A stretch of 22,461 bases of DNA, from the IMG/VR virus record IMGVR_UViG_2657245448_000004; one strand, given 5' to 3'. The translations under genes and the position numbers were made by a program. Under the pieces are notes generated by a model, which made no database searches, had not been told where the DNA came from, and was given only the letters and a program-made list of their open reading frames with translations. Each line of letters starts with the position of its first letter. Within the stretch, counting starts at the first letter, position 1. This DNA comes from a virus (lineage: Duplodnaviria > Heunggongvirae > Uroviricota > Caudoviricetes). Of the stretch, positions 5,243 through 11,054 are shown piece by piece.

Positions 5243-7504
5243 ATGTCTGATAACAAACCATGGGGAGCTACGCCCGATGAGTGGTTCCACTTCGATCTGG
5301 TGTTGGGGATGACAGACAGGCTTTTACCTGTGGTGTCCAATCCCTGTGCAGAACTGTCGCCTAATAGCAAGCTGTCTCATAATTTCGGCAAAACCCCCAG
5401 TCGCTACAATGGCCAACGTAAGGTTGTTGGTATCCCCGACTGGGCTAACTATGTTGTTACGGAAAACGATTTTGCCCGGTGGTCGAACGAACCCGATTAC
5501 GGTATTTGCGTTCGTACTGGCGACGGGGTGGTGGCTCTGGACTGCGATATCAATGACGCCGGGATGCAGGAGATCGTACGCAATATTATCCTGTCATGCC
5601 TGGGGGAACTTCCGCCACGTCGCTGGCGGGCTGACAGTCATAAATGCCTGTACCTGATTGCTGTTGATGGCGACTACCGTAAACGTGGTCACCGCCTGGA
5701 AGGCGAAAACAAACAAATAGAGCTGCTCGCTAAGGGCCAGCAGTTTGTGGCTTGTGGTACCCATCCGGCAGGCGAACGTATTCAGTGGGACTGCGGTCTG
5801 CCCGGCGAACCTCTGAAAATTACATCTGAACAGCTCGAAAGCCTGTGGCAGCGTCTGGCGGATAACTTACCCGTGAAAGACAGCTATACCGCAGGTGCAG
5901 GACGTCAGCGTGATCTTTCCTGTGTTGATCCTTCCGCGACAGATGATGTCGCCGACTGGCTTGACGCGAACGGGTGGACTCTGTCAGTCAGCTCTGATGG
6001 TTCCCGCAATCTGAAACCGTTTCGGGATGAGTCAGAATACAGCAACGGTTGCAGCGAAACATCCATTAAGTATTTCCCAAAAGGGACGGGGGGATTTGAA
6101 CAGGGACATTTTAAAAGCATGCACAACACCGATGCGGGGCTTACTGATGCCGACTGGCTGGAAGGCTACGGCTATACGCAATCCCTGTTCGAAGATCTCA
6201 CGGTGGTTGAAGATGGCGATAAGCCTGAATTTACCGATATTAATACAGATATGACAGCTCATTTTCTGGAACGCTTTATCTACGTCATCGAGGGTGACCA
6301 GGTATGTGATCTTAGCCGACCGCCATATCAGTGCATGATGGATATGAAGTCGTTCAAAAACCTGATGGCGCCTTACCAGTTCCCGCCAGAAGGGAAAGGG
6401 CAACCAACTCCCGCAACCAAACGGTGGATAGAGCATCGGCATAAGAAGATTGCTGAGACGACAGGCTATAAGCCCGGTGCGGGACGTATTATCGAGCGTT
6501 TCGACGGGCGGTTTGAGATAAACGAATTTTATATGCCTGAGCATCCACGTACAGCGGATACAAGTAAGGTGTCCACGTTCCTTAATCATATGGCGTATCT
6601 GGTACCTGATGCCTGGCAGCGCGAGTTTTTCATCGCCCGTCTGGGGTGGATGGTTCAGCGTCCGGAGCGTCGATGCCCGATTTCTATTCTGCATGTGGCT
6701 TCCGCACATGGTACGGGCAGAGGATGGGTCAGCCAGTTAATGGAGCGCGTGCTTGGTCCGTGGAACTGTGCTCGTACTCGCATGAAGATCCTGTGCGATA
6801 ACCAGTTCCATGACTATCTGTACAATACGCTTCTATGCACCATTGACGAGGTGCGCGAAAATGATAAGCGGTATGAGGTGAACGATAAGATCCGTGACGT
6901 GCTGACAGAACCACGGTTTGAAGTGAACCGCAAATATGGCAGCAAAAAAACGATGGATATATACACCGGCTTTCTGTTCTACACCAACCACTTTGATGCG
7001 CTGGCGCTGCCAGAGGAAGACCGACGTATCGCTGTGCTGGGGGGCCCTGACTTCGCCGCAACTGAAGAGCATTACGCCAGCCTGTACGGTGCGCTAAGCG
7101 ACAGCGACTTTATCGCCCAGGTGTACTGGTATCTGATGGGCGTTGACCTGTCTCGCTTTAACTGGCAGCGCGCCCCCGAGACGAAAGAACGCCTTCTGAT
7201 GATTGAAAGCAATAAGAGCGATGTGGAGGCTGCTCTTATTGAAATCCTGGATAATCCGCCTGTGCCAGCAATGACTTATCAACAAATTGTTAACGCAATA
7301 CTGGCAGAAGCAGGAATGGATGTAGAAATTAACCAGAAGCATATTACTCGCATTTTGAAAGAAAGAACAAAGCGGGAACCCGTACGCGTAAAAATTGACG
7401 GGTTTGTATATAGGATTTGGATTCTTGTAAAAAATAACGATTTCAGCAACGAAGAATTGCGCGAAATATATAAATCTTGCGAAATTTTGCAATCTGGATT
7501 GTAA
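5243..7504 (+). CDS. replication primase-polymerase (AEP-type N-terminus) fused to a helicase/NTPase-like C-terminal domain
   Basis: 753-aa ORF starting 3 nt after the Cro stop. N-terminal AEP-like motifs: hhhDhD (VVALDCDIND) and sGxxH (ACGTHPAG). C-terminal P-loop-like segment SAHGTGRGW about 40 aa before a Walker-B-like LLCTIDEV. Confidence 0.8.
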   Translation: MSDNKPWGATPDEWFHFDLVLGMTDRLLPVVSNPCAELSPNSKLSHNFGKTPSRYNGQRKVVGIPDWANYVVTENDFARWSNEPDYGICVRTGDGVVALDCDINDAGMQEIVRNIILSCLGELPPRRWRADSHKCLYLIAVDGDYRKRGHRLEGENKQIELLAKGQQFVACGTHPAGERIQWDCGLPGEPLKITSEQLESLWQRLADNLPVKDSYTAGAGRQRDLSCVDPSATDDVADWLDANGWTLSVSSDGSRNLKPFRDESEYSNGCSETSIKYFPKGTGGFEQGHFKSMHNTDAGLTDADWLEGYGYTQSLFEDLTVVEDGDKPEFTDINTDMTAHFLERFIYVIEGDQVCDLSRPPYQCMMDMKSFKNLMAPYQFPPEGKGQPTPATKRWIEHRHKKIAETTGYKPGAGRIIERFDGRFEINEFYMPEHPRTADTSKVSTFLNHMAYLVPDAWQREFFIARLGWMVQRPERRCPISILHVASAHGTGRGWVSQLMERVLGPWNCARTRMKILCDNQFHDYLYNTLLCTIDEVRENDKRYEVNDKIRDVLTEPRFEVNRKYGSKKTMDIYTGFLFYTNHFDALALPEEDRRIAVLGGPDFAATEEHYASLYGALSDSDFIAQVYWYLMGVDLSRFNWQRAPETKERLLMIESNKSDVEAALIEILDNPPVPAMTYQQIVNAILAEAGMDVEINQKHITRILKERTKREPVRVKIDGFVYRIWILVKNNDFSNEELREIYKSCEILQSGL

Positions 7505-7770
7505 AAAGGTGACGGCTAGGTGACGGCAAAACGCTTAAGCGTCACCTTAAAAAGTATATATAAAACAATGGGAAATGTGCTAAAGGTGACAGGTGACGGC
7601 AGAATTTAAAACTATATACGCGATAGTGTGTATTTTAGGTATTATACGATCGCTTATATATAGAGAACTAAAATCAACCGTCACCTGTCACCTAAAACAT
7701 CTTCAGGCCTTATATGGCGCGCTTTGCAGCAGGTGACGGATATGTAATTACGCGTCACCTAGCCGTCACC
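7505..7770. repeat. iteron array flanking an AT-rich core; putative replication origin
   Basis: About ten copies of the core GGTGAC(G/A)G in both orientations: direct at 7507..7517, 7518..7528, 7583..7592, 7591..7601, 7731..7740; inverted at 7539..7548, 7678..7693 (two copies), 7751..7760, 7761..7770. They flank a strongly AT-rich stretch (about 7549..7677) immediately after the primase gene. Confidence 0.7.
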
Positions 7771-7819: not shown

Positions 7820-8110
7820 ATGTCAAAGATATTCCGCCAATGTATGCCTTACGGTATCCGCAAAACAGCTGAGGGGGCTTGGGAAGCATTCAACAGAGAC
7901 TACCAGCCCTTAGGGGAGGCTTTTTTCTTCAAAAGAGCACTAACGCAGGCCACTCGAGATGTGTTGGCGCCACCGCCGGTAACTCAGCGCGACGACTGTG
8001 TATGGCTGTATAGCGATATCGAGCACCCGATGCACTCTGAGGCTTACTGGAAAGCGTATTGCCAGCGGCTTAAACATCTTTCTAACCTCAAAATGAAAGA
8101 TGAACGGTAA
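7820..8110 (+). CDS. hypothetical protein upstream of the Q antiterminator
   Basis: 96-aa ORF with SD GAGGA at 7808..7812, in the position that Nin-region genes occupy in lambdoid phages. No recognisable motif. Confidence 0.55.
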   Translation: MSKIFRQCMPYGIRKTAEGAWEAFNRDYQPLGEAFFFKRALTQATRDVLAPPPVTQRDDCVWLYSDIEHPMHSEAYWKAYCQRLKHLSNLKMKDER

Positions 8111-8135
8111 GTAGCAAAACGTAGAGGTCAGAGCT

Positions 8136-8558
8136 ATGCGTGATATTCGACTGGTTTTAGAGCGATGGGGGGGCTGGGCTGCGAGCGAAGGTTGCAGTGT
8201 CTACTATCCACCTGTTTCCGCTGGATTTAAGAATCTGCTACCTGCAACGCAAGCCGGGCGGCTGAAGTGCAGTGACAATGACGGTCTGATCATCAGCTCT
8301 GCTATGAACTGCCTGAAGAAAAAAGATCCGTACCTGTGTACGCTCCTTGAGTGGCATTACATCCAGGCGATGCCTGTGAGGGCTATGGGTGTGAAGCTCG
8401 GCGTATCACACACTCAAGTTCTGAAGAGGCTCCAGGCTGCAGAGGGATTTATCGACGGCTGCCTGGCTATGCTGGACGTGGTTCTGGAAATGGATCAAGC
8501 AGTTCAGTCAAAGCCTAAGGCTATCAGGACTTTGCGAAGGAGCTGCCCGGCGGCATAA
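8136..8558 (+). CDS. Q: late-gene antiterminator, Q-like
   Basis: 140-aa ORF. N-terminus MRDIRLVLERWGGWAASEG and the QKAEGFIDGCLAMLDVVLEMD segment match my recollection of the prophage Q antiterminator family. It lies directly upstream of the lysis cassette with an intervening regulatory region. Confidence 0.75.
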   Translation: MRDIRLVLERWGGWAASEGCSVYYPPVSAGFKNLLPATQAGRLKCSDNDGLIISSAMNCLKKKDPYLCTLLEWHYIQAMPVRAMGVKLGVSHTQVLKRLQAAEGFIDGCLAMLDVVLEMDQAVQSKPKAIRTLRRSCPAA

Positions 8559-8609
8559 TATCCAGTAATCAATCACGTAAGGGAATCAGATGGTATTCAG
8601 GATTGCCGT

Positions 8610-8650
8610 AAACACCTGACGGCTTCAGGTATCAAGGTAAGATAAAAAAT
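8610..8650 (+). promoter_or_regulatory. candidate late promoter (PR'-like) downstream of Q; position tentative
   Basis: Weak sigma70-like elements: CTGACG (8615..8620), 17-bp spacer, TAAGAT (8638..8643). Placement is by synteny with Q-dependent late promoters; an alternative promoter between the two terminators cannot be excluded. Confidence 0.2.
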
Positions 8651-8711
8651 AGTTGTGGAATTCCAAAAAGCCGATTAGCCTGATATCTGTTGAAAACAGT
8701 TCATCACGAAG

Positions 8712-8739
8712 AGGCTTCCGCAAGGGGGCCTTTTTTATT
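8712..8739 (+). terminator. intrinsic terminator (tR'-like) downstream of Q
   Basis: 8-bp stem (aggcttcc / ggggcct, with two G-U pairs), GCAA tetraloop, followed by TTTTTTATT. Confidence 0.6.
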
Positions 8740-8966
8740 GCCCCATTCTGGGGAAAAGTTAATAAAACAGGGCTTTCGCTGCGAAAAAACGCTATGCAGT
8801 TTTTGCCCTTTTTTATGCACCTTTTATTCACTCGAATTTCGTCATTCTGGACCACTTAAGTTGATTAAATAGGCCTTTCATCGCAAATCTATTGCGAGCG
8901 GGGATCGTGTGGTTCCTATAACGTACATTATGTTAAATAACTTCCTTTTTTAACAAATTTAACAAG

Positions 8967-8990
8967 GTTCGCTATGGCGAACTTTTTTTG
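8967..8990 (+). terminator. second intrinsic terminator in the Q-holin intergenic region
   Basis: Perfect 6-bp stem GTTCGC / GCGAAC with loop tatg, followed by TTTTTTTGTATT. Confidence 0.55.
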
Positions 8991-9090
8991 TATTCAGGGC
9001 CCACCGAAGGACGGCTCATAACCCAATCCTACGGGCGTATACGCAGGGCCCGCCTTTCAACAACACCCCGTAATGGCGGAGGTGGGAAGT

Positions 9091-9432
9091 ATGAAAATGC
9101 ACAATGCTCCTCATTCCTGGCCTGACTTACTGGAACTCTTACAAAGTTGGTGGCGTGGAGATACGCCGTTGGGCGCAGTGGTTATGTCAATTGTTATGGC
9201 TGGCTTGCGCATTGCCTATTTTGGCGGTGGCGGCGGCTGGAAACGAAAAACGCTTGAGATTTTGCTCTGTGGTGCTCTGACGCTGACTTTTGCATCCGCT
9301 CTTGAGTATGTCGGATGGCCTAAATCGCTTTCTGTTGCCATTGGTGGTGGTGTTGGGCTGATCGGTGTCGATGCTATTCGTGGGGCTGCAATGCGAGTAA
9401 TCGGTAACAAGTTTGGTGGCTCTAAGGAGTAA
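9091..9432 (+). CDS. S: holin with lambda S-like dual-start (MKM) motif
   Basis: The ORF track starts at 9073, but a strong SD (GGAGG, 9078..9082) sits 8 nt ahead of the ATG at 9091. The product then begins MKMHNAPHSW, as lambda S begins MKMPEKHDLL (from memory), and has hydrophobic TM segments. It ends 3 nt before the endolysin gene. Confidence 0.8.
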   Translation: MKMHNAPHSWPDLLELLQSWWRGDTPLGAVVMSIVMAGLRIAYFGGGGGWKRKTLEILLCGALTLTFASALEYVGWPKSLSVAIGGGVGLIGVDAIRGAAMRVIGNKFGGSKE

Positions 9433-9435
9433 TTC

Positions 9436-9912
9436 ATGCAGACACTAAATTCCCAACGTAAAGCTTTCCTGGATATGGTGGCATGGTCAGAAGGAACGGA
9501 TAACGGGCGACAACCGACACGTAATCACGGTTATGACGTTATCGTCGGAGGTGAGTTGTTCACTGATTACTCCGATCACCCTCGCAAACTTGTCACGCTA
9601 AACCCGAAGCTTAAATCAACAGCCGCAGGCCGGTATCAGCTTCTTTCACGCTGGTGGGATGCCTACCGCAAGCAGCTTGGCCTGAAAGATTTTTCGCCAG
9701 AAAGTCAGGACGCTGTGGCGCTGCAGCAGATTAAAGAGCGTGGCGCTTTACCGATGATTGACCGTGGCGATATTCGTCAGGCAATCGACCGTTGCAGCAA
9801 TATCTGGGCGTCGTTACCTGGTGCAGGTTACGGTCAGTATGAACATAAAATCGGTGACCTGATTTCCAGGTTTAAAGATGCTGGTGGGGTGGTAAATGAA
9901 GCTGACTTATAA
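9436..9912 (+). CDS. R: endolysin, lambda R-like lytic transglycosylase
   Basis: 158 aa, same length as lambda R and near-identical over long stretches as I recall it (NSQRKAFLDM.AWSEGTDNGRQ.TRNHGYDVIVGGELFTDYSDHPRKLVTLNPKLKST.AGRYQLLSRWWDAYRKQLGLKDFSP). SD AAGGAG upstream. Confidence 0.95.
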   Translation: MQTLNSQRKAFLDMVAWSEGTDNGRQPTRNHGYDVIVGGELFTDYSDHPRKLVTLNPKLKSTAAGRYQLLSRWWDAYRKQLGLKDFSPESQDAVALQQIKERGALPMIDRGDIRQAIDRCSNIWASLPGAGYGQYEHKIGDLISRFKDAGGVVNEADL

Positions 9913-10481: not shown

Positions 10482-11054
10482 ATGACTAAGAAGCTGAAAG
10501 CAAAACACGAGGTGTTTTGTCGCGAGTTTCTTGTCGATCTGAATGCTACACAAGCAGCTATTCGCGCAGGCTACGTCTCCAGGCGAGCACATGTTACGGG
10601 GGCTGAACTATACGGTAAACCTGAGATACGCGCCCGTATTAACGAGCTAAAGCAGGAGCGTATTGATCAACTGGGCATTGATGCGAATTATGTGCTGATG
10701 CGACTGGTTGAGATCGACAGGCTCGATGTGGCTGACATCCTAGAGGACGATTTAAGTATTAAGCCTCTGTCTGCGTGGCCGGAATCGTGGCGTCGGTACC
10801 TGAGTGGATTTAACCTCGCTGAAATGTTTGAGGGGCGAGGAGATGACAGAGAAATGGTCGGGATCCTTAAAAAGATTAAGTGGCCTGATAAGGTTAAAAA
10901 CCTTGAGTTGCTTGGGCGTCATGTTTCTGTTCAGGCGTTTAAAGACAACGTCAAAAATGAAGTGACTGGCGCTGATGGAGGACCAGTCAGAACAGAAATT
11001 ACCAACTTAACGCCGGAGCAGGCTGCAGAGGCGTATAGAAAAATGATGGGCTAA
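10482..11054 (+). CDS. terminase small subunit
   Basis: 190-aa ORF immediately upstream of the large terminase. N-terminal motif [20 protein letters not shown] resembles the small-terminase family as I recall it. Confidence 0.75.

Follow-up and report, generated by a model that had tools for sequence, protein, structure and literature searches.

A candidate plasmid-type Xer recombination site and a structured leader RNA between the Q and holin genes of an integrated tailed phage

This study concerns the gap between the antiterminator gene Q and the holin gene (positions 8,559 to 9,090) in a stretch of 22,461 nucleotides (nt), hereafter the window, from the tailed-phage record IMGVR_UViG_2657245448_000004 (Caudoviricetes). 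The initial annotation of this gap described a late regulatory region with two tandem intrinsic terminators and repeated GC-palindromic motifs. On comparison with related prophages, the gap is best read as a mosaic of three parts: the Q gene with a late promoter (PR') and the terminator T1, a putative recombination site for XerC and XerD, two recombinases of the host, and the terminator T2 with a leader RNA and the holin gene. The flanking genes had been named correctly, as both match their Pfam families. The main features of the locus are listed below.

8136-8558, plus strand: Q antiterminator gene for 140 amino acids (PF06530, Phage_antitermQ, E 8e-41)
8708-8741, plus strand: intrinsic terminator T1, with a 12-bp stem at 8708-8735 (AAGAGGCUUCC-GCAA-GGGGGCCUUUU) and a U-tract, U6AUU, to about 8741
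8742-8910, plus strand: putative Xer accessory sequences, about 170 bp to the XerC side of the core and conserved with it whatever the flanking genes
8793-8832, plus strand: conserved box TATGCA-N15-TATGCAC-N4-TATTCAC, its two proximal repeats 11 bp apart
8911-8938, plus strand: dif-like XerC/XerD core, consisting of the XerC arm GGTTCCTATAA (8911-8921), the centre CGTACA (8922-8927), and the XerD arm TTATGTTAAAT (8928-8938)
8964-8990, plus strand: intrinsic terminator T2, with a 9-bp stem at 8964-8985 followed by U7
8997-9051, plus strand: tRNA-like three-way-junction leader RNA, from an RNAalifold fold and covariation
9091-9432, plus strand: lambda-family holin gene (PF05106, E 1e-27; 'phage holin, lambda family' in RefSeq)

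The DNA between the two terminators contains two blocks that recur in other phages. Block A is CGCTATGCA-N15-TATGCAC-NN-TTTATTCAC and was found in 76 IMG/VR stretches, while block B is ..GGTGC....TAACGTNCATTATGTTAAAT and was found in at least 115. In stretches that have both, the distance between them is almost always 128 nt. A full-text search with the block B sequence led to the dif literature, and thus the 28 bp at 8911-8938 were recognised as dif-like. The Escherichia coli dif sequence is GGTGCGCATAA-TGTATA-TTATGTTAAAT (PMC2731167). The core in the window matches it at 11 of 11 positions in the XerD arm and at 8 of 11 in the XerC arm, with the same 6-bp spacing, and the XerC arm ends inwards in TATAA, as expected of Xer recombination sites (the inner ..ATAA is palindromic to the inner TTAT of the XerD arm). 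It is the sole match in the window, and none of 100 shuffled sequences had one.

Xer recombination sites consist of two 11-bp arms and a central region of 6-8 bp; as a rule, the XerD arm shows stronger conservation than does the XerC arm, and the central region is not conserved (PMC11724359). Conservation of the core was assessed with 55 unique sequences from loci retrieved with block A only, so that the test would not be circular. The XerD arm is perfect in 51 of these relatives. The information content falls from 1.87 bits in the XerD arm to 1.33 in the XerC arm, 1.15 in the central region, and about 0.8 in the flanks, and central positions 2-4 vary. By its arms, spacing, and conservation, the segment at 8911-8938 is thus a putative XerC/XerD recombination core of the dif/cer/psi class. 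The 230 bp between the terminators, in which the initial annotation had noted no feature, thus appear not to be a spacer but to hold a conserved XerC/XerD module. The accessible literature on Xer, cer-like, or psi-like sites in tailed prophages yielded nothing relevant, most subscription journals lying outside the search; within the searchable literature, an Xer site in the late operon of an integrated tailed phage has not been previously reported.

In the plasmid sites cer and psi, the XerC arm adjoins an accessory sequence of about 200 bp; accessory sequences are reported to be poorly conserved, and PepA has no recognisable DNA motif (PMC11724359). In the relatives of the window, a stretch of 150-170 bp is conserved on the XerC side only, and it travels with the core between gene contexts. 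The segment at 8742-8910 probably acts as such an accessory sequence, and its length agrees with those described for cer and psi. The two proximal repeats of its box begin 97 bp upstream of the XerC arm, while the ArcA repeat of psi begins 94 bp upstream. With a position weight matrix built from 22 published ArgR boxes, the best score for a cer-type box in the accessory region was 4.3, against at least 15.7 for the known boxes and 6.9 for the 95th percentile of shuffled sequences. The psi-type ArcA repeat TAACA-N-AACA was found on neither strand of the region. In the 21 nt adjoining the XerC arm, psi of pSC101 and a relative of the window (L019) agree at 16 positions (76%; TGTGGCGAGTG..), while the window has TATTGCGAGCG.. 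and agrees with psi at about 11. Since the box is neither of the ArgR nor of the ArcA type and the rest aligns poorly to psi, in line with the reported variability of accessory sequences, I classed the module as a probable variant of the psi/cer kind, with a different direct-repeat box and a second accessory factor other than ArgR or ArcA. Two other protein sites were considered for the box. TTATGCACC and TTATTCACT match TTATNCACA, which I take to be the DnaA-box consensus, at 8 of 9 positions, and this candidate was rejected because family variants (TTTATGCAG) lose the match. TTCAC-N6-TTCAC, presumably the consensus of the CreB 'cre-tag', was rejected because the family consensus here is of the TGCA type.

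Is the module peculiar to this locus? It recurs in over 100 phage contigs and was found in 29 genomic places in Enterobacterales and one Vibrionaceae, among them prophages of Citrobacter, Enterobacter, Pantoea, Proteus, Pectobacterium, Rahnella, Trabulsiella, Kosakonia, and other genera. It lies between Q and the holin gene, between the terminase genes terS and terL, or between terL and the portal gene. Of 140 box-bearing modules, 56 have a small terminase subunit gene as their upstream neighbour and 44 a Q or phiTE_015 gene, these being the commonest; downstream, a large-terminase-like gene (37) or a lambda-type holin gene (31) is most frequent, and a portal gene follows in 2. An open reading frame (ORF) on the same strand is adjacent upstream in 130 and downstream in 113. 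The module is also present where neither terminators nor Q occur. These contexts suggest that it is a portable intergenic cassette of late operons. A cos or pac site was rejected, as the position of the module relative to the terminase genes varies. In a BLAST search of the well-studied classic phages, neither the module nor the RNA motif described below had a homologue.

Plasmids carry similar sequences. The stretch 8894-8950, or parts of it, has about 77-89% identity to many of the 63 plasmid records matched, mostly non-mobilizable E. coli plasmids of about 46-51 kb, pECO-b75 among them. The pECO-b75 site was catalogued as psi/ArcA-type by Fournes et al. (PMC11724359, Sup file 1). Yersinia phage vB_YpM_39 carries the pECO-b75 site sequence; this psi-like site (L008, 2380-2560) lies just upstream of a higB2 toxin gene. 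Another Yersinia phage, YP3 (L007, 2490-2750), combines the accessory box with a terminator and a core that has diverged on the XerC side, located between the genes of a helix-turn-helix protein and a DUF4054 head protein.

The two intrinsic terminators of the initial annotation proved sound, although their extents, given there as 8712..8739 and 8967..8990, are here 8708-8741 and 8964-8990. The minimum free energy is -17.1 kcal/mol for T1 (z-score -3.05) and -10.4 kcal/mol for T2 (z-score -3.9). A scan with a terminator consensus flagged T2 and not T1. Terminator-like sites are not enriched in the surrounding 2.5 kb (4 found, 2.2 expected), and the case for T1 and T2 therefore rests on the compensated stems of their relatives. 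Fifteen variants of T1 all fold at -12 to -20 kcal/mol before a T-run, with differing stem sequences, and at least five different compensated stems were found for T2. I read T1 as the tR' terminator of the Q-PR' module. A hairpin and a T-run lie directly upstream of the leader RNA motif in each variant group examined, with differing stems and whatever lies further upstream; T2 is, by this comparison, the terminator that ordinarily precedes the motif. Each of the two terminators appears to serve as the sole late terminator in other phages.

The joins between the three parts can be seen in prophages with other Q alleles. One prophage with a different Q allele (L005) has 98% identity to the window from 8725 on, a point inside T1. 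Another (L006) has a third Q allele and other lysis genes, and its homology is restricted to 8706-8959, at 79%. Thus, joins with different Q alleles lie at 8706 and 8725, and the homology of the Xer site stops at 8959 in phages with other lysis genes. The helix-turn-helix recognition regions differ among the three Q alleles. A Q-specific loading site is therefore expected in Q-linked DNA, upstream of T1, and the segment between the terminators is, on this comparison, Q-independent. A late promoter or Q-utilisation site had been considered for block B and was dropped, since its 28 bp are dif-like and the recognition helices of Q differ among phages sharing the block.

The initial annotation set the two terminators against lambda, which has a single tR'. 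In relatives, two terminators past PR' are nothing unusual: phage mEp390 has two tandem terminators ahead of its holin gene, and Stx2 (Shiga toxin 2) phage Sakai, whose Q is 42% identical to that of the window, has a hairpin with T7 at +29 to +53 and the mapped tR' at +258. Without the Xer site, T2 and the RNA motif lie 105-360 nt past a distant Q-like gene and before holin genes of several families. Since T2 and the RNA motif stand alone in many related phages, the second terminator would result from module mosaicism and not from an extra layer of control. The early hairpin of VT2-Sakai is GC-rich and lies at 1983-2006 of L163, about +29 to +53 from the published PR' start. The published tR' is at +258, giving a primary StxS RNA of 258 nt (PMC7547250). 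The early hairpin is either a poor terminator, or a shorter RNA was overlooked.

The GC-rich repeats downstream of T2 belong to the leader RNA. The direct repeat and the palindrome of the initial annotation are both present, their coordinates shifted by one base: the 11-nt repeat is CAGGGCCCACC at 8995-9005 and CAGGGCCCGCC at 9044-9054, and the palindrome, by direct reading, is GCGTATACGC at 9035-9044. Since GGGCCC is self-complementary, the two repeat copies can form the two strands of one helix. RNAalifold independently predicted a three-way junction with the following parts.

8997-9002 with 9046-9051, plus strand: helix P1, pairing the two GC-rich repeat copies
9004-9006 with 9032-9034, 9008-9011 with 9027-9030, and 9013-9014 with 9022-9023, plus strand: helix P2
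9015-9021, plus strand: apical loop CUCAUAA, anticodon-like, invariant, and closed by G-C pairs
9035-9037 with 9042-9044, plus strand: hairpin P3, formed by the palindrome

A search with GGACGGNTCATANCCCAATCC found 62 IMG/VR stretches with the RNA motif. In the 16 distinct sequences, the junction pairs are kept in 93% of cells, against 29-48% in controls with slid partners. At six pairs, both bases have changed, for example from U-A to C-G at two and from C-G to A-U at another. By these compensatory changes, the repeats are helix P1 and the palindrome is hairpin P3, and they are not repeated protein sites. ARAGORN found no tRNA gene in the window, and Rfam gave no match at 8990-9060, even to an E value of 10, nor in a relative (L037). 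Thus, a tRNA gene or a known RNA family was rejected for 8997-9051. It is possible that the leader RNA is a processing signal or a mimic of an anticodon arm. Four relatives (L037, at about 10500-10640 on the minus strand, L013, L019, and L036) have a second structured-looking domain (CAGGCTCCGGG...CCCG..AGCCTG) between the junction and the holin gene, which the window lacks.

The holin gene has a dual start, read directly as Met1-Lys2-Met3, with AUG codons at 9091 and 9097.

9064-9096, plus strand: predicted hairpin that covers the Shine-Dalgarno sequence GGAGGUG (9078-9084) and the first AUG

This hairpin is part of the minimum free energy fold of 8990-9100, with a z-score of only -2.06. Together with the dual start, it is reminiscent of what I take to be the 'sdi' structure of lambda S.

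The remaining features of the gap concern transcription and an earlier gene.

8532-8559, plus strand: candidate promoter P1, TTGCGA-16-CATAAT, scoring 9/12 in a sigma-70 scan and overlapping the Q stop codon
8590-8645, plus strand: remnant of a 'phiTE_015 family' gene, with 281 bp deleted relative to the prophage of enterotoxigenic E. coli (ETEC) H10407
8653-8681, plus strand: candidate PR', promoter P2, with the -35 element TTGTGG (8653-8658), a 17-bp spacer, and the -10 element TAGCCT (8676-8681)
8927-8956, minus strand: promoter-like site TTGTTA-18-CATAAT, scoring 9/12 in the scan, which overlaps the XerD arm and is directed into the accessory region

Between Q and T1, some prophages, that of ETEC H10407 included, have a 'phiTE_015 family' gene for 113 amino acids, of which the window keeps both ends only. 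A relative (L004) has a different internal deletion in this gene. Promoter P1 would precede the phiTE_015 gene in relatives, and it sits at the place of PR' in Stx2 phage Sakai, L005, and L006, where PR' overlaps Q at its 3' end. By direct reading, no pause-type hexamer xAxxxT was found in the sequence downstream of promoter P1. The inferred start of promoter P2 is about 8688, with a weak AACAGT at +8 to +13. Promoter P2 and the Q-overlapping promoter of L006 have a common pattern, a -10 element, 7 nt, and GTTGAA, followed by a homologous transcribed stretch up to T1, and this stretch tracks the Q allele in all loci examined. Repeats with an 8-bp period, as in the Q-binding element of Q21, were seen near the candidate promoters only as short ones; since both have them (GCTGC/GCGGC at promoter P1, AGCCGAT/AGCCTGAT at promoter P2), they do not discriminate.

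The promoters TTGTGT-18-TATGGT of L005 and TAGTGC-18-TACGCT of L006 overlap the 3' end of Q and start just past its stop codon. Stx2 phage Sakai has a like layout, its mapped PR' start lying about 20 nt past the Q stop codon. In L005, a -10-like TAGAAT lies at about +3 to +8, some 30 nt ahead of the T1 homologue. In phage 21, the Q-binding subsites lie between the -35 and -10 elements, with a -10-like pause element near +3 to +8, and the layout of L005 and L006 agrees with this architecture (PMC6606751). I slightly favour promoter P2 over promoter P1 as PR' of the window. From either promoter, T1 is the first terminator met, and the RNA is likely to be about 50 nt long from promoter P2 or about 175 nt from promoter P1. 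A short terminated RNA or extra control over the lysis genes had been suggested before; the RNA is likely, running from the Q-linked promoter to T1, while the second terminator as a purpose-built extra control did not hold up.

On the minus strand, the -35 element of the promoter-like site at 8927-8956 is not conserved in the terS/terL versions of the module. The site recalls what is presumably the promoter inside cer (Pcer) that makes the Rcd RNA in ColE1. Protein coding by the gap was rejected, as the plus-strand ORFs of 60-68 amino acids span T1. A minus-strand ORF of 38 amino acids at 8704-8820 (URC09095.1, 'hypothetical protein', in ON470588) overlaps T1 and the Xer accessory region; it is probably spurious, because RefSeq E. 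coli genomes annotate nothing there.

The region 8100-9450 of the window has 100% identity to four Escherichia phages, vB_EcoM-606R2, -689R2, -611R5, and -683R1, and the 532-bp gap was found in 146 of 5,426 complete E. coli genomes, with all copies chromosomal. The lysogenic strains WP3-W18-ESBL-08 and ES1 have 100% identity here. The element is an integrated prophage with its own tyrosine integrase beside yfhL and its other end near yfhH/pgpC/tadA, and it encodes its own DNA polymerase and primase-helicase. Its Q is 41-47% identical to those of Stx phages and weakly similar to the Q21 structures 6P18 and 6JNX. In an E. coli O121 prophage of this family (L003, 317-1014), IS1A interrupts the Q gene, and its late genes should be locked off. 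Upstream of the window, the same prophage (L223, 16378-17139) has a TIR-domain protein gene among the replication genes, which may serve in anti-defence or defence. In the window, directly 3' of the primase-helicase gene (5243-7504), at least eight copies of the 9-mer AGGTGACGG, direct and inverted, surround an AT-rich core, TATATATAA, at 7505-7770; this cluster is probably the phage replication origin. The microRNA-like Rfam matches correspond to the palindrome in this cluster.

Taken together, I consider it probable that the gap consists of three modules, one of which is a plasmid-type Xer site. The first would be the Q-linked PR', most likely at 8653-8681, with T1; in the lysogen, it would yield an RNA of about 50 nt ending at T1. 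The second (8742-8938) would be the 28-bp core for host XerC/XerD and its accessory sequence of about 170 bp. If psi and cer are a guide, the accessory sequences would wrap around PepA and a second DNA-binding protein, and recombination would take place only between two direct repeats on one supercoiled circle. The phage brings its own replisome, and the module would turn dimers of its circular, self-replicating genome into monomers. Lying downstream of T1 in the late operon, it would be untranscribed until the Q-modified polymerase reads through. T1 would thus shield the Xer site from a presumably constitutive PR', and the site would be silent until late transcription in every context. The third module would comprise T2, the three-way-junction RNA, and the hairpin sequestering the Shine-Dalgarno sequence before the dual-start holin gene. 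T2 would be a second barrier, holding the lysis genes silent in the face of read-through or of starts inside the second module. The analysis shows the sequence features with their conservation, covariation, and gene context; that XerCD acts here, that dimers are resolved, where the promoter lies, and that the terminators insulate are what I infer from them.

Several points weigh against this explanation. In the XerC arm of the window, 3 of 11 positions differ from dif. Both the cer-type ArgR box and the psi-type ArcA repeat are absent from the accessory region, and its overall similarity to psi is weak (z-score 2.8). Promoter P1 is the better sigma-70 match and sits at the PR' place of Stx phages, and promoter P2 is uncertain. 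The RNA covariation comes from few independent lineages, so that its support is good and not overwhelming. Finally, the element is an integrated prophage with its own integrase, and its need for dimer resolution is assumed.

A bolder version goes further, and I would put it forward tentatively, as an unlikely possibility. The module would be a new accessory-dependent class of XerCD site in integrated temperate tailed phages of Enterobacterales, with another host or phage protein on TATGCAC-N4-TATTCAC, and its place behind tR' would gate it in time: at first, the untranscribed site would resolve dimers of the replicating circle, and the Q-modified polymerase would then disrupt the synaptic complex and leave multimers packageable. 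The leader RNA would found a new family of late leaders, as a processing signal or a mimic of a CAU anticodon. That late read-through switches the site off is speculation.

Could the tandem terminators and GC-rich repeats instead form a purpose-built lysis checkpoint, with the 230 bp as a spacer or a short RNA gene and the repeats bound by a protein? Both terminators are real, two barriers would cut the leak into the holin gene, and short RNAs terminated downstream of PR' are known as regulators, as in the case of StxS (PMC7547250). However, the DNA between the terminators is the conserved Xer module found also without terminators or Q, the repeats pair with each other as RNA and co-vary, T2 and its motif stand alone elsewhere, and tandem terminators occur in relatives without the Xer module. 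Thus, a checkpoint is doubtful.

It is also improbable that the Xer module is an inert relic of phage-plasmid ancestors without function in integrated phages. The closest catalogued sites are on plasmids of about 48 kb, and the XerC arm and proximal accessory sequence of the window (GAGCGGG..GGTTCC) are off the family consensus (GAGTGCC..GGTGCC). A relic would hardly keep an intact XerD arm in all but four of the unique variants while the flanks fall to about 0.8 bits, nor a fixed spacing of 128 or 118 nt between box and core, and the module persists in many genera and several genomic positions.

The block GGTGC..TAACGTNCATTATGTTAAAT might alternatively be a late promoter dependent on an activator, with an extended -10-like TGTTAAAT, no -35 element, and the TATGCA repeats as activator sites. 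In its favour, many phages have the ATG of terL or of the portal gene about 30 nt past the end of the block, TGnTAAAT is loosely like an extended -10 element, and the upstream box repeats are helically phased at 21 and 11 bp. This is nevertheless very unlikely. Each arm in the 28 bp has its counterpart in dif, with the spacing of exactly 6 bp, and the central 6 bp vary as in Xer recombination sites. The hexamer after the TGn lacks the -7 T and varies (TAAATA or TAAATC), and the box, 97 bp upstream, is too far for a class I or II activator. Moreover, an Xer recombination site catalogued from plasmids has the same core behind different upstream DNA.

Least credible by far is an attachment site of an element integrating at chromosomal dif by XerCD, as CTX-phi and IMEX do: the perfect XerD arm of the dif-like core and a centre sharing 4 of 6 bases with dif (CGTACA and TGTATA) would fit, but the prophage has its own tyrosine integrase next to yfhL and its end by yfhH/pgpC/tadA, not at dif, the internal position between Q and holin means that the site is not the crossover point, and accessory sequences favour resolution, not integration. 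For this phage, integration at dif is therefore excluded.

Small plasmids are known to use Xer sites with accessory sequences as stability devices, and filamentous phages to integrate at dif-like sites. If the three-module explanation with a plasmid-type Xer site is true, the exploitation of host Xer recombination extends to a large new group, the integrated tailed prophages across Enterobacterales, and antitermination is linked to site-specific recombination in a directly testable way. Given the novel box, the accessory factor would be neither ArgR nor ArcA. In polylysogens, ectopic dif-like sites would become candidate deletion hot spots. With the leader RNA motif, a classic regulatory region gains a candidate new family.

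Among the known systems, psi of pSC101 (XerCD with PepA and ArcA) is comparable in its 28-bp core, its 6-bp centre ending in CA, its accessory sequence on the XerC side, and a two-repeat box with an 11-bp period about 95 bp upstream. Its XerD arm, TTATGTTAAAC, is almost identical to TTATGTTAAAT of the window, while next to the XerC arm psi resembles the L019-type relatives (16 of 21 nt, TGTGGCGAGTG..GGTGC) and not the window. In contrast to psi, the ArcA repeat (TAACAA..GCAACA) is absent here, with TATGCAC-N4-TATTCAC in its place, and the host replicon is an integrated tailed prophage with the site in its late operon, whereas psi is on a small plasmid. The cer site of ColE1 and relatives (XerCD with PepA and ArgR) has the same order of accessory sequences, XerC arm, centre, and XerD arm. 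The half-sites TGCA(C/T) and ATGCAG/ATTCAC here resemble cer ArgR boxes such as TGCATAGCTATGCAG, although the matrix score is at background. The half-site spacer here is one base longer than in cer, the box lies nearer the core by about 15 bp, the centre is 6 bp and not 7-8 bp, and the XerD arm is of the dif type (GTT, not GGT). Chromosomal dif shares the XerD arm, most of the XerC arm, and the 6-bp centre; the site in the window differs in lying away from a replication terminus and in having a conserved accessory-like flank.

The lambdoid Q-PR'-tR' cassettes (lambda with its 6S RNA, Stx phages with StxS, and phage 21) likewise have a PF06530 Q, a promoter, a terminator about 50 nt on, and the lysis genes beyond. 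Here, in contrast, a gene remnant lies between Q and the favoured promoter, and a recombination site and a second terminator precede the lysis genes. The leader RNA is comparable to the tRNA-like structures and tRNA genes that lie between Q and the late genes of Stx phages, its position being just after tR'. Its loop CUCAUAA recurs unchanged as the anticodon loop in the CAU tRNA of VT2-Sakai, and its acceptor-like 6-bp helix is followed by GCC(A/U/C). It differs from a tRNA in having no D arm and in P3 being a 3-bp hairpin, not a T arm.

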